Source of the DNA: Campylobacterota bacterium
Lineage (GTDB): Bacteria; Campylobacterota; Campylobacteria; Campylobacterales; Sulfurovaceae
Reading direction: 5' to 3'
NCBI GenBank assembly: GCA_034722955.1
Contig: JAYEOM010000123.1
Span: 1 to 31,459, forward strand
DNA: 31,459 nucleotides
This document shows positions 2,082 to 14,548 of this stretch, piece after piece (the first letter of the stretch is position 1; each line of letters starts with the position of its first letter). The translations under genes were made by a program, and so were the position numbers. The notes under the pieces are model-generated. The model saw only the letters and a program-made list of their open reading frames with translations. It made no database searches and was not told the origin of the DNA.

Positions 2082-2564
2082 CTAGTCTATACAGCGAACA
2101 CAGCGGATATAATGTGAATCACTCTTCATATGGCTATATGGTTGACTCTCAAATACAGCATAGACTGCCCAATACTCATTTTTCTTGGATGGTGTAGAGG
2201 ACCAAAAATCCATACCTATTGTGTTTTTGAGTCCTCTTGTCCTGTCATGCAGCTCTGTCAATTCAGCTACTTTTGGCAGTCTCCAGTCAGAATAACCAGC
2301 GTAGTGCAGATTGCTGCAATAATTTTTTGCATATTTCCATTTACCTGCTTTTCCAGCAGAGCGGTTGCTTTTGTAAGCACCATCCTCTTTATCACCATAA
2401 GGTGAATCTTGCCACATCAATTTAGTCTTGTAATTAACATATACATCACCATCATCACATGGAACTTTGGCACTATCACCACTACCGGCAGGTGCAACAT
2501 AGCCACCTGCTATGAGCATGGTTCCCGCCATAACCAAAAGAGCTACAATAACTGCTTTTTTCAT
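2082..2564 (-). CDS. Secreted DUF1566 (Lcl C-terminal) domain protein
   Basis: Signal peptide; LMWQ, AKNYCSNL, AGYSDWRLP..EL, FWSST and YIRCVR motifs. Confidence 0.85.
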   Translation of the reverse strand: MKKAVIVALLVMAGTMLIAGGYVAPAGSGDSAKVPCDDGDVYVNYKTKLMWQDSPYGDKEDGAYKSNRSAGKAGKWKYAKNYCSNLHYAGYSDWRLPKVAELTELHDRTRGLKNTIGMDFWSSTPSKKNEYWAVYAVFESQPYSHMKSDSHYIRCVRCID

Positions 2565-2649
2565 AGACTACTCCTCAAATACAATATTATTTAGTATGAT
2601 AATATATATTTACTCACAAATTGCTAAAAAAAGCTATTTTAACCGGTCA

Positions 2650-3036
2650 TTATCCCCAATCTTCATTTTTTGCACGATTTTTATGTTTTGATTTTTTATA
2701 AGAGCTACTGTTTTTCAATTTTTGAAGACGGTTTAGATTACTCATCTCTGCTTCACGGATATCATCAAATACCCTGTCATCTGTAGACTCACTCAAGATC
2801 AGCTGAGCATAGAGACGATCTATATATATTTTTAGCTCTCGATAATACTCCAAATCCAAAGAGACCGTATCACTCTCATCTAGTTTTGATTTGAGCTCTA
2901 TAAACTTTTGGACAAAATGTTGAGCAGAGATATTTTCATCCTTAAACATCCTAAAAAGATTTTTGCTGATCTTCTCTAACTCTCCAATATATTTTTGACG
3001 CTGATATTTATCTATCTGCTTTTGTGTATAACGAAT
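2650..3036 (-). CDS. Hypothetical charged helical protein, probably starting at ATT (128 aa)
   Basis: Frame is open for 29 codons upstream of ATG 2949; AAGGAG lies 6 nt before ATT at 3036; an in-frame TAG blocks further extension. Confidence 0.7.
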   Translation of the reverse strand: MRYTQKQIDKYQRQKYIGELEKISKNLFRMFKDENISAQHFVQKFIELKSKLDESDTVSLDLEYYRELKIYIDRLYAQLILSESTDDRVFDDIREAEMSNLNRLQKLKNSSSYKKSKHKNRAKNEDWG

Positions 3037-5045: not shown

Positions 5046-5453
5046 TCAAAATATCTCCTCTTTCATCTGTTTTATGATTCGTTTTAGTGCAGCATCTTCA
5101 TCAGATTTGAAATCACTCTGTATCCTATATATAGATCTATTACCATCAAATATCTTGAGCCTGATATAGCCATTGAAGTCCGCACCCAGACTTTTGACCT
5201 GTGGATTGCTACAGGAGTCAACATGGTGGATATATCCGTTTAGATGATAGTTGCAAGATTTAGATGAGATAGATTCAAAATTTTTTTTGAGCGGCTTTGT
5301 CAGTTTTGGATCAAATGTATCTATAGTGATACACGGCAGAGATAGATCTTTTTTGTCGGTAAGATACCCTGAGTATACGGGATAATCCTCGCAACCACTC
5401 AGCAGGAGCAGTATTGAGACTCCCCACAAGGTATGAAACCTAAAGATTTGCAA
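5046..5453 (-). CDS. Hypothetical lipoprotein
   Basis: Lipobox LSGC after a hydrophobic stretch; TTG start overlaps the end of the upstream gene. Confidence 0.7.
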   Translation of the reverse strand: MQIFRFHTLWGVSILLLLSGCEDYPVYSGYLTDKKDLSLPCITIDTFDPKLTKPLKKNFESISSKSCNYHLNGYIHHVDSCSNPQVKSLGADFNGYIRLKIFDGNRSIYRIQSDFKSDEDAALKRIIKQMKEEIF

Positions 5454-5832
5454 TACCTTTTACCCAGTTTTCCATAGTGGTATTGGCTTCCGGATTGGGT
5501 GCTTCGAGAAAACTGATGACAAATGAGCCATCTCTCTCTGCGACTCCGATAGATCGAGGTCTCACTGCCAATACCACTGCTTTAGGCAGATGTTTGCCAA
5601 AACAGCAGATAATATTTTTGGCATCTTTTATATCTTCAGATATATCACCCTCTGCCAAACTGCTAGTATGTGCGTAGTGGTCAAACTCTCCTATATATAC
5701 AGCTACTCGATGAGCTTCAATCTGCTCTTTTAGGTAGTTAAGTATATCATCTATATTTTTATAACTTGTCTCATTTTTATCAACTTCTAGTGTATATACC
5801 GGATACTTCTCCATAACGGTAATCTGCTTCAT
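5440..5832 (-). CDS. Conserved hypothetical protein (DUF6858/DUF302-like)
   Basis: EKYPVY, FDHYAHT, CFG..LP..LAVRPRSIGVAE; family assignment is from memory. Confidence 0.65.
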   Translation of the reverse strand: MKQITVMEKYPVYTLEVDKNETSYKNIDDILNYLKEQIEAHRVAVYIGEFDHYAHTSSLAEGDISEDIKDAKNIICCFGKHLPKAVVLAVRPRSIGVAERDGSFVISFLEAPNPEANTTMENWVKGIANL

Positions 5833-5944: not shown

Positions 5945-7114
5945 TCACATCCCAGGTACTCTTGGGATTTTTCCTAGTTTTGAGTTTCGGCAGTACCAGC
6001 CCCACCCTTTTTTCATCCAGTGACCAACTATCGGTAGAGGGATCATCTTGCCTCCCTTGGCATCACGATAGACAAAAGCAGCACCGTTACCTGTATCCAT
6101 AACACAGAGGATATTTAGATGCTCCTTATAGCTATATTTCGAATCTATACCCTGACTATGATTGAAGAGATTATAAGCAACATTTTTTGCCATAACCTCT
6201 GCTACATGCCCCTGTTTTGCTTTCCACTCTGGCCCCATCAATGCAGCACTATCACCAATAGCATAAACACCCTCAAAACCTTCGATCTCATTATACTCAT
6301 CAGTTACTACAAATCCTGCATCACTCAGCGGAAGATCAGAGCTCTCTATGACAGAGTGCCCTTTGCCTGCTGATATGAACATAGTAAGATCTGACTCTAG
6401 CTTGCTGCCATCTTCGAAATTGACTCCATCACTTTCAAAACCGGTAATTTTCACACCCACTTGTTTGTAGATATTGGTCATTTCAAACATCTTGTCCATC
6501 ATCTCTACAGCTTTGTGCCCCATCTTCATACCAGGTTTTTCCATAGGTGCAAAAAAGGTCAACTCAAACTTATCTCTCAGCCCTCTTCTCTTGAGCATTG
6601 TATCTACATTGAACAGCACTTCAAATGCAGGACCACCGCGTACAGCAGAAGCATCTTTGGGATTACCGCCAAAACCCATAGCTATCTTGCCTGACCCTCT
6701 AGCTACCAAGGCATTGAGTGCGATATTGAGCTGGGTCGCCTCTTCTGGTCTACCGCAGATAGAGAGTGTATGCTCCATACCTTGAAATTGAATCTTATCT
6801 TGCCCAAGAGCAACAACAATATAGTCATAACTATCCAATATGCGGCCACTATCCAGAGTGATCTTTTTGATTTTAGCCTCTATCTTGCTGACAGGATCAA
6901 CAATCAGTGAAAAGCCATGCACCTCTGCCAAATCAGCCAGAGGAACACTGACATCCTCTTTTGTGGATTCACCAGTAGGTATCCAGATAGATGTAGGATA
7001 GATATAGAAATAGTCCCGATCACTCACTAATGTCACATCCAAATCACTCTTTCGCAGGTATATTGCTGCTTCTATGCCTGCAAATCCTCCACCTAGAACT
7101 AAAACAGTTGCCAT
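5945..7114 (-). CDS. sqr: Sulfide:quinone oxidoreductase, type VI (SqrF-like) flavoprotein
   Basis: Rossmann GGGFAG; SICG; GFGGNPKD.SAVRGGPAFE; YAIGD; KQGHVA; LCVMDTG; C-terminal amphipathic HWMKKGWGWY. Confidence 0.8.
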   Translation of the reverse strand: MATVLVLGGGFAGIEAAIYLRKSDLDVTLVSDRDYFYIYPTSIWIPTGESTKEDVSVPLADLAEVHGFSLIVDPVSKIEAKIKKITLDSGRILDSYDYIVVALGQDKIQFQGMEHTLSICGRPEEATQLNIALNALVARGSGKIAMGFGGNPKDASAVRGGPAFEVLFNVDTMLKRRGLRDKFELTFFAPMEKPGMKMGHKAVEMMDKMFEMTNIYKQVGVKITGFESDGVNFEDGSKLESDLTMFISAGKGHSVIESSDLPLSDAGFVVTDEYNEIEGFEGVYAIGDSAALMGPEWKAKQGHVAEVMAKNVAYNLFNHSQGIDSKYSYKEHLNILCVMDTGNGAAFVYRDAKGGKMIPLPIVGHWMKKGWGWYCRNSKLGKIPRVPGM

Positions 7115-7134
7115 ACTCTCTCTCCTTTTTAAGA

Positions 7135-7329
7135 TTATCTAAAGATACCTGATCGCTCTTTCTCAAGCACCAATTCATCCGAAACAGTTGTATTGGCTTG
7201 GATGATTCCATAGATAGCACCGATCAATAACCCAGAGAGGATAACAATCCAAATCGTCAACCTCTTCTCACTGCTCTCTTTTCCATTATAATCTTCTATT
7301 TTTTCCAATGTAGGCTCTATACTCTGCAT
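7135..7329 (-). CDS. Small single-pass membrane protein (64 aa)
   Basis: AGGAG SD; one hydrophobic helix; tightly packed between ccoG and sqr. Confidence 0.75.
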   Translation of the reverse strand: MQSIEPTLEKIEDYNGKESSEKRLTIWIVILSGLLIGAIYGIIQANTTVSDELVLEKERSGIFR

Positions 7330-7339
7330 CGTTAATCTC

Positions 7340-8797
7340 CTATCTCTTTATCAAGTCAGAACGAGGATAGACAAAAACTGTTTTTCTATCTACTACGATC
7401 TTCTCTTTATCATCTATAGCATAAGCTCTGATAGTTACTGGGATCGGTACATCTTTTCGTGCATCGTCTGCTAATTGTGCATCTGTTTCAAAAATAACAA
7501 CTTTTTTCTTTTTCTTCCCTGCTCCGATCTTGAATGCATCTTTTGGTCTCACGATCTTAATTTTGTCATTACCAATAATCTCAAAGAAGTAAGTATGAGC
7601 TTTGCTATCTGTATTGGTAAAGAGGAATAGATATGAGTTCTGCACTACACCTTGATCTAGTATCTTATAGAGTCGTGTTGTTTTGTTGACATTCAAGAGC
7701 ATATGCTCTTTTGTGCTTCCCATCGCAAAGAGAGCGATCAGAACTATTATGAGGACAGCTGCATAAGCGAGTACTTTACCTCTGAGGAAATTTGTCTTTC
7801 CCTCATGTCTCAACGCCTCTTTTTCACTCGACCATCTTACTAGGCTAGGTTTACCAAGTGCACCCATAACATTTGTACATGCATCCACACACTCCAAGCA
7901 GTTGATACACTCTAGCTGCATCCCTTTTCGGATATCGATATTTGTCGGGCAGACAGTCACACAGCTCTCACATGTAGTACACTCAGCTGTAGGGTCGGCT
8001 GCTAGCAGATCTTTGGTTTTGCTAAATGCTTTTTCTCTATCATATCCATGCCCCTGATATATATCTCCACCACGGATCGGATCATATATCGCCATCACAG
8101 TATCATCATCATAAAGTACAGACTGTACACGACTATAAGGACAGATATAGATACAGAAATCCTCTTTTATGAAAACAACATCTATGACGATAAATGCTGC
8201 TGTTCCAAGAAGTATACCAACAAGCATCATATGCTCACTAGGATCCTGAATATACTGAAAGAAATCTTCAGGTGGTACAAAGAACCAGAGGAAATCAGCT
8301 GCTGCTATCAATGAGAGAACAGCCCATAGTAAAATCGCGACCACTTTTTTGATCTGATTTTCAGGCTTACTCATATCTGGTTCTTTCTGCTTGTTCTTGA
8401 TACTCTTTCGTAACCCAAGCAGTTTTGTCTCAATACCATCTCTATAGATCACACGAAATATCGTCTGAGGGCAAGCCCATCCACACCAAGCTCGACCACC
8501 CACTGCAGTGACGGCAAATATCCCCAAAAAGAGAAGCATCAGCAAAAATGGCATCAAATAGAGCTCTTGCATATCAAATGCAACACCGGCTAGGTGTAGT
8601 TTTTTATGGTCAAAACTCAATAAAAAGAGGTGATTGCCTCCGATAGTAATCCAAGGCATCACCAATGCAATGATAGTTGCTAAGACATAAGCCCAATATC
8701 TCTTGATACGATAAGATACCCACCCCTTGAGGTACTCTTTTTTCATGTTTTTCTTTGGCTTCTCTTCTACACTGTTGTCTGTTGCTGCTGCATCCAT
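7340..8797 (-). CDS. ccoG: cbb3-type cytochrome c oxidase accessory polyferredoxin CcoG/FixG
   Basis: GRAWCGWACPQT, FCIYICPYSRVQ, CTTCESCVTVCP, CINCLECVDAC and a FixG-type C-terminal domain. Confidence 0.93.
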   Translation of the reverse strand: MDAAATDNSVEEKPKKNMKKEYLKGWVSYRIKRYWAYVLATIIALVMPWITIGGNHLFLLSFDHKKLHLAGVAFDMQELYLMPFLLMLLFLGIFAVTAVGGRAWCGWACPQTIFRVIYRDGIETKLLGLRKSIKNKQKEPDMSKPENQIKKVVAILLWAVLSLIAAADFLWFFVPPEDFFQYIQDPSEHMMLVGILLGTAAFIVIDVVFIKEDFCIYICPYSRVQSVLYDDDTVMAIYDPIRGGDIYQGHGYDREKAFSKTKDLLAADPTAECTTCESCVTVCPTNIDIRKGMQLECINCLECVDACTNVMGALGKPSLVRWSSEKEALRHEGKTNFLRGKVLAYAAVLIIVLIALFAMGSTKEHMLLNVNKTTRLYKILDQGVVQNSYLFLFTNTDSKAHTYFFEIIGNDKIKIVRPKDAFKIGAGKKKKKVVIFETDAQLADDARKDVPIPVTIRAYAIDDKEKIVVDRKTVFVYPRSDLIKR

Positions 8798-8798
8798 G

Positions 8799-9464
8799 CT
8801 ATTCTCCTTTTTTATGGTTTTTTTCTTGTTCGAAAGGGCAGATCAATATCTTGCCATCATCATTTGATTGGATTGATGGAGATATCTCTACCCAAGAGCC
8901 ATCTATCATATCTCTGATTCCTCTTGATTCGATATAGTCTTTGAGAGAGCTTCTACTGATATTTAGTTCCCGCGATATAGCACTTACATTCATCCCATCT
9001 TTGAGATGAGCAATAATCTGTGCCTGATATTTATCAAATTTTGAACTTGATCTACTCCCTTTTGGGCGACCGATCTGATTTTGTCTGCTTCGCTGCTCTT
9101 CTCTAAGTGTATTGAGCAGAGGAAAGATTTCACTAGCAAGGCTTCTCCTATTGATAACCGTTCCGGATGAAGCACTATAGAGTGTGATACCTCTGCCGAG
9201 CATACAGTTGATGATCTTGACAATCTCATCTACCTTTTCACTAAACATCCAAATCTCATCAACTATTATGCTATCACCATCTTTTAATCCATGTACAAAC
9301 CTTTCAAACTGCTCTCGCTCTTCAATAGGACGATTTTTATTTGAGTATTCAAAAACCTCTTTATCTATATTCAAACCCTCACCCAATGAAAAAGAGAGAA
9401 TTACACTCTGCTGATGAGTAATATTTCGCTTGCCTGACAACTGCCGCAAGTATGCATAAGTCAT
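8799..9464 (-). CDS. Serine recombinase (resolvase/invertase)-fold protein with C-terminal HTH; catalytic residues absent
   Basis: MTYAYLR start, LKDGDSIIV, GRPKGS arm and HTH MNVSAISRELNISRSSL; RVS replaced by RQL and (D/S)RLGR by WMFSE. Confidence 0.8.
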   Translation of the reverse strand: MTYAYLRQLSGKRNITHQQSVILSFSLGEGLNIDKEVFEYSNKNRPIEEREQFERFVHGLKDGDSIIVDEIWMFSEKVDEIVKIINCMLGRGITLYSASSGTVINRRSLASEIFPLLNTLREEQRSRQNQIGRPKGSRSSSKFDKYQAQIIAHLKDGMNVSAISRELNISRSSLKDYIESRGIRDMIDGSWVEISPSIQSNDDGKILICPFEQEKNHKKGE

Positions 9465-9487
9465 ATCTCTCCTTTATCATTTTTATA

Positions 9488-9517
9488 ATCTTAGCTAATT
9501 ATGATGAATAAAGTCAA
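9488..9517 (-). promoter_or_regulatory. Putative sigma70 promoter of the resolvase-like gene: TTGACT-N18-TAAGAT
   Basis: -35 at 9517-9512, -10 at 9493-9488, AAGGAG SD before ATG 9464. Confidence 0.5.
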
Positions 9518-9535
9518 GGATATTCTAAATATTAT

Positions 9536-9587
9536 CGTCAATTTTTATATTTCTGCGTCAATTATTTACAAAAGTCGTCAATTTTTA
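9536..9587. promoter_or_regulatory. Three direct repeats CGTCAATT(T/A)TT(A/T) with exact 20-bp period
   Basis: Copies begin at 9536, 9556 and 9576, between divergent promoters; the moaC extended -10 TGTTAAAAT follows at 9588-9596. Confidence 0.75.
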
Positions 9588-9632
9588 TGTTAAAATACAC
9601 TATATTTCAATATTAAATCCAAGGACAGATGT

Positions 9633-10103
9633 GTGAATTTAACCCATTTAGATGAAGAGAACAAACCCAAAATGGTAGATGTCTCTGACAAAGAGCATAC
9701 TACCCGTATCGCTGTAGCCAGCGGTCTCATAGAGGTAACACAAGAGGCATTTGATGCAGTAGTCGAAAACTCAGCAAAAAAAGGTCCCGTACTTCAAACA
9801 GCAGTTATAGCAGCGATACAGGGAGCCAAACAGACCAGTACCCTGATACCTATGTGCCATCCTCTTATGTTGACTTCAGTGAAGACAGATATAGAAGAGC
9901 TACCTCAACTGCCAGGCTTCAAGCTTACAGTGAGAGCCAAACTAACTGGACAGACAGGTGTAGAGATGGAAGCTCTCACTGGTGTCAGTGTCGGACTACT
10001 GACGATCTACGATATGCTCAAAGCCATAGATAAAGGTATGGTGATTAAAAATATACAACTTGAGAGAAAAAGCGGAGGTAAAAGCGGTGATTTTAGACGA
10101 TAA
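9633..10103 (+). CDS. moaC: Cyclic pyranopterin monophosphate synthase
   Basis: [50 protein letters not shown] start. Confidence 0.97.
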
Positions 10104-10356
10104 AACTCAAGATAAGCCTGAGATATTCTACCCCACCCAATGGGGATTTAAACTGATAGGCAGAGATGCTGATGCACTCAAAGCCTGCATCAAAGAGGTC
10201 ATGGGAGACAAAGAGCATCTATGCTCATCTGGCAACCGATCAAAAGGCGGAAAATTTCACAGCTACAACGCCAGCTGTGAAGTAGATAGTCAAGAGGAGC
10301 GAGATCGTATCTTCAAGAGCTTTCAAGATCATGATGATGTCAAGATGGTGATTTAG
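10087..10356 (+). CDS. DUF493 (YbeD/HP0495-like) protein
   Basis: KPEIFYP..WGFKLIG, SKGGKF.SYN, VKMVI; GTG 10087 with GGAGG SD, overlapping the moaC end. Confidence 0.85.
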
Positions 10357-11533
10357 TATGATCCAAATCAAAAAACTTATCAGCAGCATAGTAGAACATA
10401 AAAGCCAAGCCGATAGCACCTATAGAGATCATCCACTCTACTGATGTTGGCGTATACTCAGTCAGCCCTGGGGCGGCGGAGTATTCACGGGTTTTCAGTG
10501 CGAGCATGGGTGCTAGCTGTGTATCATCTACCAAGTCATAACGCATCCAAAATATACCAACCATACCGGAGATAGAGGCATAGACCATTAGCTTGATCGC
10601 TCGTCCCTTGCTCACAACTATGATCACAAAAGGGATCAGCATCCCCAAAAGCACCTCCCCTACCAAGAATCTTTTGGAGGTGATCATATGCAGAGCTATA
10701 TCACCTCTCTCAGGCATTTCACCATATATAGCAGTAAGAGCACGCCAAATCTCAAAAAAGATCAAAATCGCCAGCAACAATCCCAACACCTGTGCTAGAG
10801 TCACCATAAACTTTTTTACCTCCGGAGGGAAGTCCATCTTGTATCGCCATCCATAGATCAAAAAGAGGAGATAAGAGCCGGTCACCATCGCAGAGAGGAT
10901 AAAATAGAGTGGGAAGAAAACCCCATTTGCGATAGGACGAGCAACCAAAAAGCCAAATACAGCTCCCAGATTGGAGTGAGCTGCAAGACCAATAACCAGA
11001 CCAGCAAGCCCGAAGATCTTGGAGTATTTGTGATTATCATTGTTGAGAAAGATAAACTCCAAAATGATAAAAAAGAGGTAGAGTCCATAGAGTGTCCCCA
11101 TCCACCATATAGCAGAACTCAATCCTGGTGTCAATACATTATAGATCACCATACGCACAGGGTGTCCGATCTCGAAAGCGATCACAGCAAAACCTGTCAA
11201 TATCGTAATGATAGCACCGATGATCGCCCGTTTTCCTATGATCTGGAATGACTTAATATTGAAGACATGTCCTAGTGATGACATGATGCACAATCCTGTA
11301 CTAGATACGACAAAGAAGACATACATCGCGATCAGAAGCCCCCAAGCATGCTGCCTAGTGACACCATAAGCATGATGTCCCTGAACTAGATAGGCACCAA
11401 TACCCCAAAACATCATTGTCACCAATCCTATCGTCAACCAAAACATAAAGATATTCAATGGTGTAAACTCAAAACTAAAAAAGGATTTCAGCGTCTGTCT
11501 ATTGTAAGGTAAAAATTTTTCTATATTCATCAC
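10340..11533 (-). CDS. psrC: NrfD/PsrC-family membrane anchor (about 10 TM helices)
   Basis: WGLLIAMYVFF, EIGHP.R, SSAIWWM, WMRYD and Y.PT..EW motifs; follows the Fe-S subunit gene. Confidence 0.8.
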   Translation of the reverse strand: MMNIEKFLPYNRQTLKSFFSFEFTPLNIFMFWLTIGLVTMMFWGIGAYLVQGHHAYGVTRQHAWGLLIAMYVFFVVSSTGLCIMSSLGHVFNIKSFQIIGKRAIIGAIITILTGFAVIAFEIGHPVRMVIYNVLTPGLSSAIWWMGTLYGLYLFFIILEFIFLNNDNHKYSKIFGLAGLVIGLAAHSNLGAVFGFLVARPIANGVFFPLYFILSAMVTGSYLLFLIYGWRYKMDFPPEVKKFMVTLAQVLGLLLAILIFFEIWRALTAIYGEMPERGDIALHMITSKRFLVGEVLLGMLIPFVIIVVSKGRAIKLMVYASISGMVGIFWMRYDLVDDTQLAPMLALKTREYSAAPGLTEYTPTSVEWMISIGAIGLAFMFYYAADKFFDLDHTKSPS

Positions 11534-11540
11534 ATCTTCC

Positions 11541-12104
11541 TTATGTCAAATAAAAGAGTTTTGGTTTGGTACCAAGATGCTCTTTAAGTTTATAATACTC
11601 TCTATCTCTAAGCACCTTGGATATTGCACTATCAGGATCATCCAAGTCCCCAAAGATACGAACTTTTGTAGGACAAGTTGCTTGACAGGCTGTCGTCATC
11701 TCACCATGTATCAGACGGGTATCAGAGCAGAAGTTGCACTTATCCACTGTTGTTGTCCTATCATCGATATAGCGTGCATCATAAGGGCAAGCCTGCATAC
11801 AGTAGGTACATAGTATACACTGATCGGGATTGACACGAACTACGCCGTTCTCATCATAAAAGGTTGCATTGGTTGGACAGACGGCTTGACATGGTGCATT
11901 ATCACACTGTTGACACTGGCTAGGCTGAAAACTGCTAGAGCCTATGCTGAGATTTGGAAATACTCCCTCTATCTCATTGACTCCTACCCAGATACGATGC
12001 TGATCAGCCCCAAGCAAAATACCATTCTCCTCTTTGCAGGCACTCTCACAAGCTTTGCAGTTGATGCAGCTCTTATAATCCAGTGCCATTCCATAACGAG
12101 CCAT
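11541..12104 (-). CDS. psrB: Four-cluster Fe-S electron-transfer subunit (PsrB/NrfC family)
   Basis: CINCKACESAC, CQQCDNAPCQAVCP, CILCTYCMQACP, KCNFC..ACQATCP. Confidence 0.88.
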   Translation of the reverse strand: MARYGMALDYKSCINCKACESACKEENGILLGADQHRIWVGVNEIEGVFPNLSIGSSSFQPSQCQQCDNAPCQAVCPTNATFYDENGVVRVNPDQCILCTYCMQACPYDARYIDDRTTTVDKCNFCSDTRLIHGEMTTACQATCPTKVRIFGDLDDPDSAISKVLRDREYYKLKEHLGTKPKLFYLT

Positions 12105-14548
12105 TACACCCTCCTTATATCAACGATAGTTTCATGCATTGCTGCTGAACCAAAGGATTTTTCATATCTATCTTCAATGATGAGATTATCATTTGCACCA
12201 CGATGATGCGCCAAGGTAAGCTCACTCGACTCTGCACCAAATCCATGAATAAAAAAGAGTACATTGACTCCGATCTTCTCTGTAGGGTATGCCATTATCT
12301 CTATAGTACCTATACTACTCTTTACCTCCACCATATCTCCAAGTTTTATCCCTCTCTCATCAGCAACACGCTTGTTGATCCAGAGATGATTGTCATCTAG
12401 CAGATCTAAAAGCAGAGCATTGTTAGAGGTGCTGCTTTGGGTAAACTGCCCATGCCTTCCGGTGATAAATTTGAATTTTCCTTTGGGAGTGGGACGGTAG
12501 AGCTCATCATACCAAGTAGGCATCGCATCTACTCCTCTCTTCTTCTCCAAGTTGTAGAGTGCACAAGCGATCTTTTTTGTCGCAGTTCTAAAATCTTTTT
12601 TGAGAACGGCTATCTCATCAGTATCGACACAGGTATCATGATACGGCTCATTGATCAAATCTCCGGTGATCACAGAGTAACTCTTCTTGTGTTCAGGATA
12701 ATATTGATACTCATTGAGTGATTTTTGTTTGAAAAATTTATCCATATCGGGATAGAAGACACCTCTATCACGCAGTATTTTCCAAGCCTCTTCACCATAG
12801 ACGCTCGCTACCATATGGTGGTTGATCGTCTCTTGAGAGTGGCGATAGCCATCAGCAAGATCATAGCCCTCCTCTCCATAGATAGCTTTTTCGCCACGCT
12901 CTTCGATCTCCTCTTGCAGTGATTTGTCATATCTCTTGGAGATTTCAAAAAGAGGCTTGGATAGTTTTTCACCCAATCCACGCATGATCTCGATGACAGG
13001 CTTCGTATCATGTTTGGCATCTACTACCTTTTTCCGAAGTGCTATAGAGGGTTCTGCTCCTCCAAATGTCTTGACAGGGTCTTCCCTTTCAAGATAAACA
13101 GACTCTGGCAACACTACATCTGCCATCATAACCGTATCGCTAGGCATTGTATCGATCACAACAACCAAATCCATCTTTTCAAGCATCTTTTTTGTTTTTA
13201 GCGTATTGGGGACAGATAACATCGGATTTTGTTTGTAGACAAAAAATGCTCGCACTGGATATGGTGCAGTACCATCTATGACCGTGTTTCGCCACGCTAT
13301 CCAAGAGCCGCTTGAGCCTATAACTGCTGCTTTACCCTTCTCTATACGCTCTTTTGCATTTTCATAGCTTGGAGAGGATATGGTGTGTTCACCTAGAGGA
13401 AGCTTTTTGCCAAAGATGATGCCACCCTTCTTGTCAATACCTCCTCCCATAGCACTAAAGATCGCTTGCGCTCGTCTCAGCTGATAATCCTGCTGACTCC
13501 ATGCTGTACGGCGACCCTGATAATAGATAGCTCTAGGGGCATGTGCCATAAAGTCTCGTGAAATCTTACGAATCTCCTCTGCCTTGATCCCTGTGATAGT
13601 CTCTGCCCACTCTGGAGTATATTTATGATCAATGATATGTTTTTTATAGACTTCAAAATCACTCATATTCTCTCGGGCAAAGCGTTTGTTGTAACGCTCC
13701 TCTGTCAAAGCAACATGGGTCAATGCCAAAACAAAAGCGAGATCTGTGCCCACCTCTATAGAGTGCCAAGTATCTGCATGAGCGGCTGTGTTGGTAAAGC
13801 GTGGGTCTATAACGACAAGCTTTGCTCCTCTACCTTTGGTTCGCTTGAATAGATCCATCGTATCTGGTGTCACGATCGCTTCGGCACGATTGGCACCTGC
13901 CATGATGACATACTCTGCATTTTCCAAATCTGCCTGTCCATATCCTCCTAATGTGAGTGTATACCCGGCTATTGTAGTTGAAAGGCAGATACTGCTATGG
14001 TTGACATAGTTGGATGAACCTATCTTATCTTTCATAAATGAGGTATAGGTATGCTCTGCCATCCCCTCTCCGGCACAATACCCAATAGTAGAGCGGTTAT
14101 CCCTCTCCTCATCGATGATTTTGACCATCTTATCTTTGATATGCTCATACGCTTCATCCCAGGTCACCCGCTTGAACTTTCCTTCGCCCCGTTTGTCTAC
14201 ACGGATGAGAGGATACTTCAGACGATCAGGATCATCAAGTGCCTGTATACCTGCATTACCACGGGCACAGAGCATATTTCTAGATTTTGGAAACATAGGA
14301 TTTGGATTAAGTTTCGTCAAAACACCATCTTCTACACGTGCTATAGCTGCACATTTGTTGACACACATTTCACATAGAGTAGGAGTCTCTTGGAGCTTCT
14401 CACTCATCTTGGTTTTCGTCAAGCCGTAACCGGCAATTTCACTCTTGTTTTTCCTCTCTATTGAGAGGGAGGCAGCGGTAGAGACACCTACTACTGTCAA
14501 TACAGCAGTACCTTGAAGAAACCGCCGTCTCGATATTTCCGTTTGCAT
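12104..14548 (-). CDS. psrA: Tat-exported molybdopterin oxidoreductase, polysulfide/thiosulfate reductase (PsrA/PhsA)-like
   Basis: SRRRFLQ Tat motif; CEMCVNKC..LCARG Fe-S site; DPDRLKYPL; HSSIC putative Mo-ligand Cys; ADVVLPESVYLER; substrate not provable from sequence. Confidence 0.8.
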   Translation of the reverse strand: MQTEISRRRFLQGTAVLTVVGVSTAASLSIERKNKSEIAGYGLTKTKMSEKLQETPTLCEMCVNKCAAIARVEDGVLTKLNPNPMFPKSRNMLCARGNAGIQALDDPDRLKYPLIRVDKRGEGKFKRVTWDEAYEHIKDKMVKIIDEERDNRSTIGYCAGEGMAEHTYTSFMKDKIGSSNYVNHSSICLSTTIAGYTLTLGGYGQADLENAEYVIMAGANRAEAIVTPDTMDLFKRTKGRGAKLVVIDPRFTNTAAHADTWHSIEVGTDLAFVLALTHVALTEERYNKRFARENMSDFEVYKKHIIDHKYTPEWAETITGIKAEEIRKISRDFMAHAPRAIYYQGRRTAWSQQDYQLRRAQAIFSAMGGGIDKKGGIIFGKKLPLGEHTISSPSYENAKERIEKGKAAVIGSSGSWIAWRNTVIDGTAPYPVRAFFVYKQNPMLSVPNTLKTKKMLEKMDLVVVIDTMPSDTVMMADVVLPESVYLEREDPVKTFGGAEPSIALRKKVVDAKHDTKPVIEIMRGLGEKLSKPLFEISKRYDKSLQEEIEERGEKAIYGEEGYDLADGYRHSQETINHHMVASVYGEEAWKILRDRGVFYPDMDKFFKQKSLNEYQYYPEHKKSYSVITGDLINEPYHDTCVDTDEIAVLKKDFRTATKKIACALYNLEKKRGVDAMPTWYDELYRPTPKGKFKFITGRHGQFTQSSTSNNALLLDLLDDNHLWINKRVADERGIKLGDMVEVKSSIGTIEIMAYPTEKIGVNVLFFIHGFGAESSELTLAHHRGANDNLIIEDRYEKSFGSAAMHETIVDIRRV

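Follow-up and report, generated by a model that had tools for sequence, protein, structure and literature searches.

The TnpR resolvases of Tn3 and gamma-delta (PDB 1gdt and 5cy1) are active, transposon-borne serine recombinases whose inverted-repeat sites span ~28–34 bp. TnpR also acts as a repressor: its binding sites overlap the promoters of its own gene region, which leads to autoregulation. Sin (PDB 2r0q) is likewise active, with a full-length helix E, and binds a direct-repeat accessory site. The Mpi-like invertases (NF009949, ‘master DNA invertase Mpi family’) resemble the protein described here in fold, size, and domain order.

The window analyzed here is a 31,459-nt stretch of a Campylobacterota genome. 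It carries a gene, res, whose product shares the serine-recombinase fold with TnpR. Unlike TnpR, this protein is chromosomal and has lost catalysis, and its locus bears direct repeats 20 nt apart and a compact 17-bp inverted repeat. A sequence-only reading had described res as a dead serine recombinase that might have been domesticated as a transcription factor. Our analysis confirmed the presence of a dead serine recombinase upstream of ccoG in this organism, with the following arrangement (window coordinates):

8799–9464, minus strand: res coding sequence, stop codon included, for a 221-aa dead serine-recombinase homologue (open reading frame list, Pfam, fold match).
7340–8797, minus strand: ccoG, encoding a cytochrome cbb3 oxidase accessory protein (TIGR02745, 486 bits against a cut-off of 316.7).
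8795–8809, minus strand: ccoG translation start, comprising the ribosome-binding site AAGGAG (8804–8809, in the last res codons) and the ATG (8795–8797), from the sequence.
9633–10103, plus strand: moaC, divergently transcribed from res (Pfam MoaC).

Several claims of the sequence-only reading concerned this layout, and all of them held. The res frame is intact and uninterrupted, the ccoG Shine-Dalgarno sequence lies in its 3′ end, the arm and helix-turn-helix (HTH) are retained (residues 132–136 and HTH matches, below), and no transposase flanks res. Its neighbors are ccoG and moaC. The res stop codon (TAG) is followed by a single nucleotide and then the ccoG ATG. This 1-nt spacer and the Shine-Dalgarno sequence within the res frame predict that translation of ccoG is coupled to that of res. 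No protein other than that encoded by res matched Pfam Resolvase (PF00239) in the 2.51-Mb genome.

The res protein begins M-T-Y-A-Y-L-R-Q-L-S and reads W-M-F-S-E at residues 72–76 and G-R-P-K-G at residues 132–136. It matched PF00239 at 29.4 bits (cut-off 23.3), as well as HTH_7, HTH_23, and HTH_28 at scores under the model cut-offs. Foldseek returned the gamma-delta, Tn3, and Sin resolvases as the best matches to the predicted structure (E ~1e-8), and VIA-align superposed the model on serine-recombinase catalytic domains over 115–122 residues (Z 12–14.7, rmsd ~2.5–2.7 Å). Sin was also the best sequence match to the family profile among solved structures (E 6.5e-7, residues 1–173 including its GRP arm). 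The layout of a small serine recombinase is present, with a resolvase catalytic-domain fold, helix E, arm, and C-terminal HTH. Its parts, all encoded on the minus strand, are:

9138–9464, minus strand: resolvase-fold domain, residues 1–109; the positions of the nucleophile and of D67, R68, and R71 hold L9, W72, M73, and E76, while R7 and R50 are kept (alignments, omega).
9081–9137, minus strand: shortened helix E, residues 110–128 (model, gaps relative to Mpi-like relatives and Sin).
9057–9071, minus strand: GRPKG arm, residues 132–136, counterpart of the resolvase/invertase minor-groove G-R arm (conservation, Sin alignment).
8925–9035, minus strand: HTH DNA-binding domain, residues 144–180, the most conserved part of the protein (HTH matches, invariance).
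8802–8906, minus strand: C-terminal tail, residues 187–221, predicted to be disordered, with a nearly invariant Cys209-Pro210 (pLDDT <50, tally).
9204–9206, minus strand: Cys87 codon; the residue is in helix D, next to the dimer interface of the model (Cys in 361 of 362 sequences).
8838–8840, minus strand: Cys209 codon, in the C-terminal tail (Cys in 357 of 362 sequences).

The resolvase-fold domain was modelled with a pLDDT of 80–95. Among 30 diverse family sequences, residues 132–181 held 14 of the 20 invariant columns. These included G132, R133, P134, and G136 of the arm, which aligned with GRP of Sin, and R171, S173, D176, Y177, S180, and R181 of the HTH region.

Catalytic residues were assessed by profile-to-PDB alignment and by tallies over 362 distinct family sequences. 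Y-A-R-V-S of Sin fell on y-l-r-q-k of the family, and D-R-L-G-R of Sin and gamma-delta fell on W72–E76. Both placements agree with the sequence-only reading, in which the nucleophile motif reads YLRQL and the (D/S)RLxR motif reads WMFSE. The equivalents of Ser10, Arg68, and Arg71 are thereby L9, M73, and E76. Ser occupied the nucleophile column in 2 of the 362 sequences (versus 9 of 9 outgroup sequences), and Arg was present at the R68 and R71 columns in 0 and 3 sequences, respectively. The shortening of helix E suspected earlier was also evident. The modelled helix has 19 residues, the family alignment shows a 14-column gap relative to the nearest active relatives, and the conserved E-R-x-x-I-x-E-R segment of the full-length helix is deleted. 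Alignment to Sin likewise left a gap of ~14 residues between helix E and the arm.

Two arginines persist: R7, the R8 equivalent, in 351 of 362 sequences, and the invariant R50, on which gamma-delta R45 fell, in 361 of 362. Their retention, along with S10 and T16 in the window's protein, would be expected of an active recombinase with an unconventional nucleophile, such as the Ser of ‘RQLS’ or a Ser/Thr at position 16. The former had been named in the sequence-only reading as a finding that would count against it. We consider such activity extremely unlikely. Only 42 of the 362 sequences carry Ser at position 10, where K and P dominate; position 16 varies (H, S, A, or T), and the arginine columns and helix E segment are lost as described. 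To judge from these residues, proteins of the res family are almost certainly unable to recombine DNA.

The Mpi model NF009949 was the sole NCBIfam model matched by the family, at 43–63 bits (59.4 for res) versus a cut-off of 272. A representative search with the res family showed a score gap after ~50 clusters at E ≤ 1e-30. The next-best proteins beyond this gap were canonical invertases bearing Y-x-R-V-S-T and S-R-L-G-R-S, which score 150–190 bits on the Mpi model and are themselves under its cut-off. They have in common with the family the arm and linker GRPKGSxxKSKxD and an HTH of the type VSRxxLxxxIxxRxL. Unlike these invertases, the res family lacks the S10, R68, and R71 equivalents, has a helix E shorter by 14 residues, has gained Cys87 and the Cys209-bearing tail, occupies a fixed place upstream of ccoG, and shows vertical inheritance. 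The Mpi-like invertases are thus the nearest active relatives, consistent with the earlier proposal of a family derived from invertases. In a tree with 6 active outgroup rows, the res family formed one clade with a support of 100/100.

Linkage to ccoG was strict. The gene lay immediately downstream of res on the same strand in all 30 loci sampled across the phylum and, among the matches listed, in every one of the 104 loci having 300 nt or more of downstream sequence (80 of 403 genome-contig matches of the family were listed). Divergent moaC was found upstream in 78 of the 99 loci with enough upstream DNA. It was not the upstream neighbor in loci L013–L030, and the intergenic region upstream of res is shared with moaC in Sulfurovaceae-type loci only. 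The chromosomal moaC/ccoG context is fixed, and no link to a recombination site, invertible segment, or mobile element was seen.

A single strong match per genome (E ≤ 1e-19) was present in 49 of 301 sampled Campylobacterota genomes. The family is single-copy, and its tree is in line with taxonomy, with taxonomic families f7, f8, f11, and f12 forming one clade each. Omega was 0.02–0.17 in 39 of the 40 closest pairs listed (those with a computable dS). By region, 12 close pairs gave 0.077 for residues 1–109, 0.047 for 110–131, 0.062 for 132–186, and 0.167 for the tail, while the neighbors CcoG and MoaC gave 0.059 and 0.043 (11 close pairs). The res family is therefore inherited vertically and under purifying selection, which extends to the formerly catalytic domain. 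The sequence-only reading had asked whether homologues all lack the nucleophile and precede ccoG, and had conceded that sporadic, neutrally evolving homologues would speak against it; the residue tallies, conserved synteny, and low omega values all fall on the side of that reading. Furthermore, these comparisons suggest that the family has held its place immediately ahead of ccoG over a very long period in sulfur-oxidising Campylobacterales. A decaying pseudogene was rejected because of the omega of ~0.06. One genome holds a decayed res copy with stop codons.

Upstream of res lie two elements that together form an ordered array:

9536–9581, minus strand: three direct TTGACG half-sites (9576–9581, 9556–9561, and 9536–9541), exactly 20 nt apart, upstream of the res promoter.
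9488–9517, minus strand: promoter-like element with TTGACT (−35-like, 9512–9517) and TAAGAT (−10-like, 9488–9493).

The TTGACT lies 24 nt downstream of the last TTGACG and opens an inverted repeat, TTGAC-N7-RYCAA. In the window this repeat is degenerate (TTGAC-N7-ATCAT), and the consensus A-tract is missing from two of the three direct repeats. Promoter-like consensus matches in the region were not above those in shuffled sequence (9 versus a mean of 12.3). A look-up of public sequencing runs covering positions 7100–9700 listed 4 runs, all of them DNA runs from a single study, and no RNA run. Across 105 distinct 200-nt upstream regions of the family, TGACG occurred 224 times in the sense orientation of the gene and 32 times in reverse, with ~7 expected from the genome-wide pentamer frequency. 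Sites clustered at about −117, −97, and −77 from the start codon, and successive sites were spaced by 20 nt in 91 of 122 cases. The array consists of between two and four direct repeats with 20-nt spacing and, after them, the inverted repeat, with TTGAC-N7-(G/A)(T/C)CAA recurring at the −35 position in families f1, f7, f8, f11, and f12. The full chain TTGACG-20-TTGACG-20-TTGACG-24-TTGACT was found once in the genome. These patterns reveal a conserved, genome-unique, operator-like array in the res promoter. The array was absent from 9 ccoG loci without res, which is a weak control because the array sits in the res promoter. An FNR-type box (TTGAC-N4-ATCA) was rejected as an alternative description; it fits Sulfurovaceae-type promoters only, and not those of f7, f8, and f11.

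Genome-wide searches gave no sign of a wider regulon. TGACG-N14–16-TGACG had 3 matches, 2 of which were at the res locus, versus ~1.5 expected. Pairs of TTGAC[GT] 19–24 nt apart numbered 12 versus 10 expected, 3 of them at the res locus, and a stricter search for half-site clusters returned no match, the res locus itself included. In 5 Sulfurimonadaceae genomes, TTGAC-N7-GTCAA was at chance frequency (1–5 per strand versus 1–4 in controls), and 3 of these genomes had a copy with an AT-rich spacer at res itself. We also fetched 48 metagenome loci of Mpi-like invertases and examined 34 (L121–L154) for shared inverted repeats. No TGACG-type repeat was shared near these loci, a result which is uninformative because many contigs are only 1–3.5 kb.

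The retained HTH and arm, together with the conserved operator-like array, point to a regulatory function, and a DNA-binding switch for its own operon is the most likely role of the res protein. We propose, with a probability of roughly 70%, that it is a domesticated invertase which regulates its own operon, res-ccoG, probably by repressing it. A small serine invertase of the Mpi-like branch would have lost its nucleophilic Ser, the equivalents of Arg68 and Arg71, and a 14-residue stretch of helix E. It would have kept the fold of a resolvase, the helices that form the dimer, the GRPKG arm for the minor groove, and the HTH. The predicted dimer, or an array of dimers, most likely binds the TTGAC(G/T) half-sites in the res promoter, where the putative inverted-repeat operator covers the −35 region after the direct repeats. 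Such binding would autoregulate, and probably repress, the bicistronic res-ccoG transcript. We assign the array to the res protein by association, and infer both its binding there and the sign of regulation.

The position of the half-sites bears on this sign. Most of them (~−77, −97, and −117) lie upstream of the −35 element, where activators typically bind, and in Sulfurovaceae-type loci (78 of 99) the array also faces moaC. The res protein could accordingly be an activator of its own operon or of divergent moaC, with the upstream direct repeats recruiting RNA polymerase. We find this doubtful, in that the only element present in every family is the inverted repeat spanning the −35 hexamer and spacer, where a bound dimer would compete with polymerase. 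Control of moaC cannot be the conserved role because moaC is not the upstream neighbor in L013–L030.

Repeated half-sites also resemble accessory-site arrays. With its fold and predicted dimer interface kept, the res protein might be a non-catalytic architectural subunit for another recombinase or chromosome function, much like resolvase at res sites II and III. This is highly improbable given that the genome encodes no other PF00239 protein and has only one such array. Moreover, the orientation of the array with respect to the gene (224 versus 32) and its position are fixed across the 105 regions, and for this reason we see no sign of inversion or excision.

Text searches of the literature and term searches within individual papers turned up no account of an inactive resolvase ahead of ccoG, and a term search of the text of a 2019 review of respiratory regulation in Campylobacterota returned no resolvase, recombinase, invertase, ccoG, or fixG. 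These searches found no paper on the family, and databases label its members “recombinase”. The mislabelling by annotation pipelines anticipated from the sequence is visible in public names such as ‘recombinase family protein’ and ‘DNA invertase Pin-like’. Labels of this kind, ‘recombinase’ or ‘DNA invertase’, are attached to several thousand database proteins from Sulfurovum, Sulfurimonas, Sulfurospirillum, Hydrogenimonas, and relatives. As these proteins are almost certainly incapable of recombination, tallies of mobile elements or phase-variation systems in these organisms are inflated. In evolutionary terms, the family would represent a clean and old example, passed on by vertical descent, of a serine recombinase that was exapted as a presumed regulator. 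The changes involved are well defined: Ser and Arg residues were lost, helix E was truncated, and a cysteine pair was acquired. This would make the family a natural experiment in turning a recombinase dimer into an operator-binding protein. Physiologically, it hints that ccoG, and with it the supply of copper to the cbb3 oxidase, is under a previously unrecognised control in microaerophilic sulfur oxidisers.

Dimerization was examined by structural modelling. The homodimer model scored 0.50 (median of three runs), versus 0.00 for the best of 3 controls, but this score may mirror mere likeness to resolvase dimers, for which solved structures exist. Of the proteins solved as one-chain pairs, 20 of 30 reached this mark, as did 1 of the 23 whose structures are single chains; these counts hold only roughly because our own alignment was used. 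At least 97% of contacts agreed between runs, and the partner chain had a pLDDT of at least 70. Helices D and E (residues 77–90 and 104–125) make up the modelled interface, with residues 82–83, 85–86, and 89–90 around Cys87 taking part.

Cys87 and Cys209 are specific to the family. No Cys was among the residues tallied at the Cys87 column for active outgroup rows, and the C-terminal tail is missing in active outgroup relatives. One divergent lineage of the family is without the tail, and one member there has Val at the Cys87 position. Two nearly invariant cysteines, the strict linkage to ccoG, and the 1-nt coupling to its translation would all suit a protein that is no transcription regulator but a partner of CcoG, for instance in Cys-based copper or Fe-S handling, with another factor binding the array. 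Such a role is improbable, for no part of the protein is as invariant as the HTH and arm (14 of 20 invariant columns, omega 0.062), which is hard to explain without DNA binding.

For the proposed autoregulator, the cysteine pair may instead sense Cu(I) or the redox state. One possible, still tentative elaboration is that the formerly catalytic domain was rebuilt as a sensor, with Cys87 and Cys209 together making a thiol switch or else a site for Cu(I) or Fe-S. Such a site would alter dimer geometry, free the protein from the TGACG array, and tie expression of ccoG, which encodes a cupric reductase, to copper or oxygen status. Regulators of the CsoR, CueR, and OxyR types offer a possible functional analogy only, as dimeric DNA-binding proteins with a conserved cysteine pair and a copper- or oxygen-related gene under their control; the searches run found no kinship to the res protein in sequence or fold. 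If the sensor reading is true, a site-specific recombinase would have given rise to a new class of one-component, signal-sensing transcription factors, and free-living Campylobacterales would have in this family a dedicated regulator of how copper reaches the cbb3 oxidase. Under the same reading, the Cys209-bearing tail would have been gained after inactivation.

The dead-resolvase gene (res) lies divergently from moaC and immediately before ccoG, in the following arrangement:

7340-8797, minus strand: ccoG (TIGR02745 at 486 bits)
8799-8801, minus strand: TAG stop codon of res, separated by a single base from the ccoG ATG
8799-9464, minus strand: res, an uninterrupted ORF of 221 codons
9488-9493, minus strand: TAAGAT, a -10-like hexamer 18 nt beyond TTGACT
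9512-9517, minus strand: TTGACT, a -35-like hexamer 24 nt after the last TTGACG repeat
9633-10103, plus strand: moaC, the upstream neighbour of res

The ribosome-binding site of ccoG (AAGGAG) sits within the final codons of res, where the sequence-only reading had placed it. The res protein matched Pfam Resolvase (PF00239) at 29.4 bits, narrowly over the cut-off of 23.3, while several helix-turn-helix (HTH) models, including HTH_7, fell slightly under theirs. Its sole NCBIfam match was the Mpi master-invertase model (NF009949), at 59 bits, far short of that model's cut-off of 272 bits.

The N-terminus of the protein reads Y5-L6-R7-Q8-L9-S10, and residues 72-76 read W-M-F-S-E. Solved structures were searched with a profile built from 30 diverse homologues, which matched Sin (2r0q, E 6.5e-7) and gamma-delta resolvase (1gdt, E 4e-6). 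In the profile alignment, the nucleophilic Ser of Sin falls on position 9, the D-R-L-G-R of Sin and gamma-delta falls on positions 72-76, and the invariant R50 of the ccoG-linked homologues (hereafter the family) occupies the position of gamma-delta R45. An alignment was then made of 362 distinct full-length sequences from the family: 257 database proteins of 195-250 aa, 104 locus translations, and the res protein itself. This set is weighted towards two well-sampled lineages. Ser occupied the nucleophile column in 2 of the 362, and Arg occupied the R68 and R71 columns (gamma-delta numbering) in 0 and 3, respectively. The R8 and R45 equivalents were kept in 351 and 361. The proposed loss of the nucleophile and catalytic arginines thus extends across the family. 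Against rescue by the adjacent Ser of RQLS, which had been considered possible, Ser stands at position 10 in only 42 of the 362 sequences. Among five tested features that define serine recombinases, the res protein lacked four and retained only the fold and domain order. The family protein is without the chemistry of recombination.

An AlphaFold2 model built from 61 sequences had a mean pLDDT of 78 (80-95 across residues 1-120), and its best structural matches were serine recombinases (Foldseek E about 1e-8 to gamma-delta, Tn3, and Sin). VIA-align comparison with catalytic domains gave Z scores of 12-14.7 and rmsd values of 2.5-2.7 Å over 115-122 residues. Helix E spans only 19 residues in the model (110-128), and canonical invertases carry 14 more there, in a conserved E-I-E-R-D-L-I-S-E-R-T-K-E-G stretch, bearing out the suspected shortening. 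These active invertases share with the family both the HTH and the distinctive GRPKGSxxKSKxD arm, two parts that had been noted as retained. Homodimer modelling scored 0.50 (median of three runs) versus 0.00 for the best of three controls, with at least 97% contact agreement and partner pLDDT of at least 70. Among proteins of solved structure, 20 of 30 one-chain pairs and 1 of 23 single chains reached this mark, counts that hold only roughly here because a custom alignment was used. As resolvase dimers have solved structures, the result indicates likeness rather than proof. Cys87 is flanked by the modelled interface, which comprises residues 77-90 (helix D) and 104-125 (helix E). Fold, dimer helices, arm, and HTH are kept by the family.

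Scanning 1.84 billion representatives with the family profile yielded 50 clusters at E<=1e-30, beyond which scores fell off. The next-best proteins were canonical invertases with intact Y-x-R-V-S-T and S-R-L-G-R-S motifs. They scored 150-190 bits against the Mpi model, so that by profile score the nearest active relatives are classed as Mpi-like rather than Mpi equivalogs. This agrees with the suggested descent from invertases. The scan also returned P0292, which is Mpi-like, 203 aa long, and scores 103 bits against NF009949. Its N-terminus reads Y-A-Y-V-K-G-N, with no R-V-S, but it retains L-S-K-L-G-R-S and a full-length helix E. These motifs suggest that some catalytic residues were lost independently here, outside the ccoG-linked family.

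A maximum-likelihood tree that set 30 family members against six active invertase outgroups recovered the family as one clade with 100/100 support. Taxonomic families f7, f8, f11, and f12 each formed a single clade, while f1 needs two changes, with f12 nested inside it at weak support. From this topology, inactivation appears to have occurred once, with mainly vertical inheritance since.

Selection on the gene is purifying, the outcome of the dN/dS check that had been proposed: omega was 0.02-0.17 in 39 of the 40 closest pairs, and dS was saturated in the other. Regional values were pooled over 12 close pairs, which are mutually related and hence not independent. These gave 0.077 for the ex-catalytic domain (residues 1-109), 0.047 for residues 110-131, 0.062 for the arm and HTH (132-186), and 0.167 for the C-terminal tail. 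CcoG and MoaC gave 0.059 and 0.043, respectively (11 pairs each). Constraint on the dead domain is as strong as that on its housekeeping neighbours. Together, the family is a monophyletic, vertically inherited, and strongly constrained derivative of Mpi-like invertases. Occasional loss is tolerated: in one f11 genome, a decayed copy with in-frame stops and a degenerate arm (L171, G258:C20:86400-91000, about 2537-2899, minus strand) still lies directly upstream of ccoG.

Two cysteines distinguish the family. Of the 362 sequences, 361 have Cys87 and 357 have Cys209, the latter usually followed by Pro. Neither occurs in the active outgroup, whose proteins stop short of the C-terminal tail, a segment predicted to be disordered in the AlphaFold2 model. 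The pair is not universal, as two divergent members upstream of ccoG (L169 and L170, from G216 and G188; f2, genus g47) end shortly past the HTH without the Cys209 tail, and L170 has Val at the Cys87 position.

Strong matches (E<=1e-19) occurred once each in 49 of 301 sampled Campylobacterota genomes. The two largest taxonomic families mostly lack the gene (strong matches in f2, 2 of 90 genomes; in f3, 0 of 124). Weaker matches (E>=1e-11) were of a different kind; the two inspected (L172, L173) were ordinary active-type recombinases not adjoining ccoG. When one genome per species was scanned by pattern, 403 relatives emerged, and the 80 of these that were listed were Sulfurovum, Sulfurovaceae, and Hydrogenimonas records. 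Locus L025 encodes a protein identical to a Sulfurimonas-named protein, and L029 one 97% identical to a Sulfurospirillum-named protein. Source names were exclusively 'recombinase family protein', 'DNA invertase Pin-like', or 'hypothetical', the first two being the mislabelling that had been anticipated. Literature text searches and term searches within papers found no description of the family.

As predicted, homologues sit before ccoG, which was directly downstream on the same strand at 30 of 30 loci across six taxonomic families, and at all 104 loci with at least 300 nt of downstream DNA. Divergent moaC was upstream in 78 of the 99 loci whose flank was long enough, but not in L013-L030, making ccoG the conserved partner. 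The family is locked to ccoG.

The 168-nt intergenic region between res and moaC contains three plus-strand copies of CGTCAATT(T/A)TT, at 9536, 9556, and 9576, spaced by exactly 20 nt and reading TTGACG on the res strand. Across 105 distinct upstream regions, TGACG occurred 224 times in the orientation of the gene versus 32 in reverse; about 7 are expected from its genome-wide frequency (3.2e-4 per position and strand). Sites clustered about -117, -97, and -77 from the start codon. Of 122 successive spacings, 91 measured 20 nt, 13 measured 21 nt, and 3 measured 19 nt. With their A-rich flanks, the half-sites have the consensus AAAA-TGACG-AAAAWA. The three-fold array is unique in the 2.51-Mb genome, where pairs elsewhere are at chance level. 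No TGACG was found in the 400 nt upstream of nine ccoG loci from genomes lacking res, a weak control since the array belongs to the missing gene's own promoter. A promoter-proximal inverted repeat begins at the -35-like hexamer, reading TTGAC-N7-ATCAA in Sulfurovaceae-type loci, TTGAC-N7-GTCAA in f7 and f11, and TTGAC-N7-GCCAA in f8. The right arm is degenerate in the window copy (ATCAT), and f7 loci have an extra TGACG right after the -10-like hexamer. The res promoter thus carries a conserved, oriented, and genome-unique array of putative half-sites.

We infer that the family protein binds this array in its own promoter. In Hin and resolvase complexes, the HTH reads the core and the arm reads the adjacent A/T tract; by analogy, the HTH would read the TGAC core here and the GRPKG arm its adjacent A/T tract. 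Occupancy of the -35 inverted repeat would repress the res-ccoG transcript, a predicted mode of action akin to that of TnpR acting as repressor at res sites. Centre to centre, 11 bp separate the two TGAC cores of this repeat; the sites of active resolvases and invertases are about 26-28 bp long. Losing 14 residues from helix E could have drawn the HTH domains closer to the dyad, which would suit the shorter spacing. Passages of PMC8267372, which cite Marckmann et al. 2019, describe CcoG as a cupric reductase supporting copper delivery to cbb3 oxidase. Given this role, a cysteine-based copper or redox signal is a plausible input to the family protein.

Several neighbouring genes were also recorded. 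A 64-codon ORF with a hydrophobic stretch and no Pfam match (7135-7329, minus strand) lies directly downstream of ccoG. Among 64 loci with sufficient sequence, 28 have a homologue in the same position, as do two ccoG loci without the dead resolvase, and the product may act alongside CcoG as a small membrane partner. Further downstream on the same strand are a pyridine-nucleotide-disulfide oxidoreductase of 389 aa that may belong to the sulfide:quinone reductase type (5945-7114) and a DUF6858 protein (5440-5832). On the other side, a DUF493 ORF (10060-10356, plus strand) overlaps the 3' end of moaC by 44 nt, a pair kept in loci L001-L012. Just past this pair is a three-gene polysulfide/thiosulfate-reductase-type cluster (10340-14548, minus strand), whose products are an 814-aa molybdopterin oxidoreductase, a 187-aa 4Fe-4S protein, and a 397-aa NrfD-type membrane subunit.
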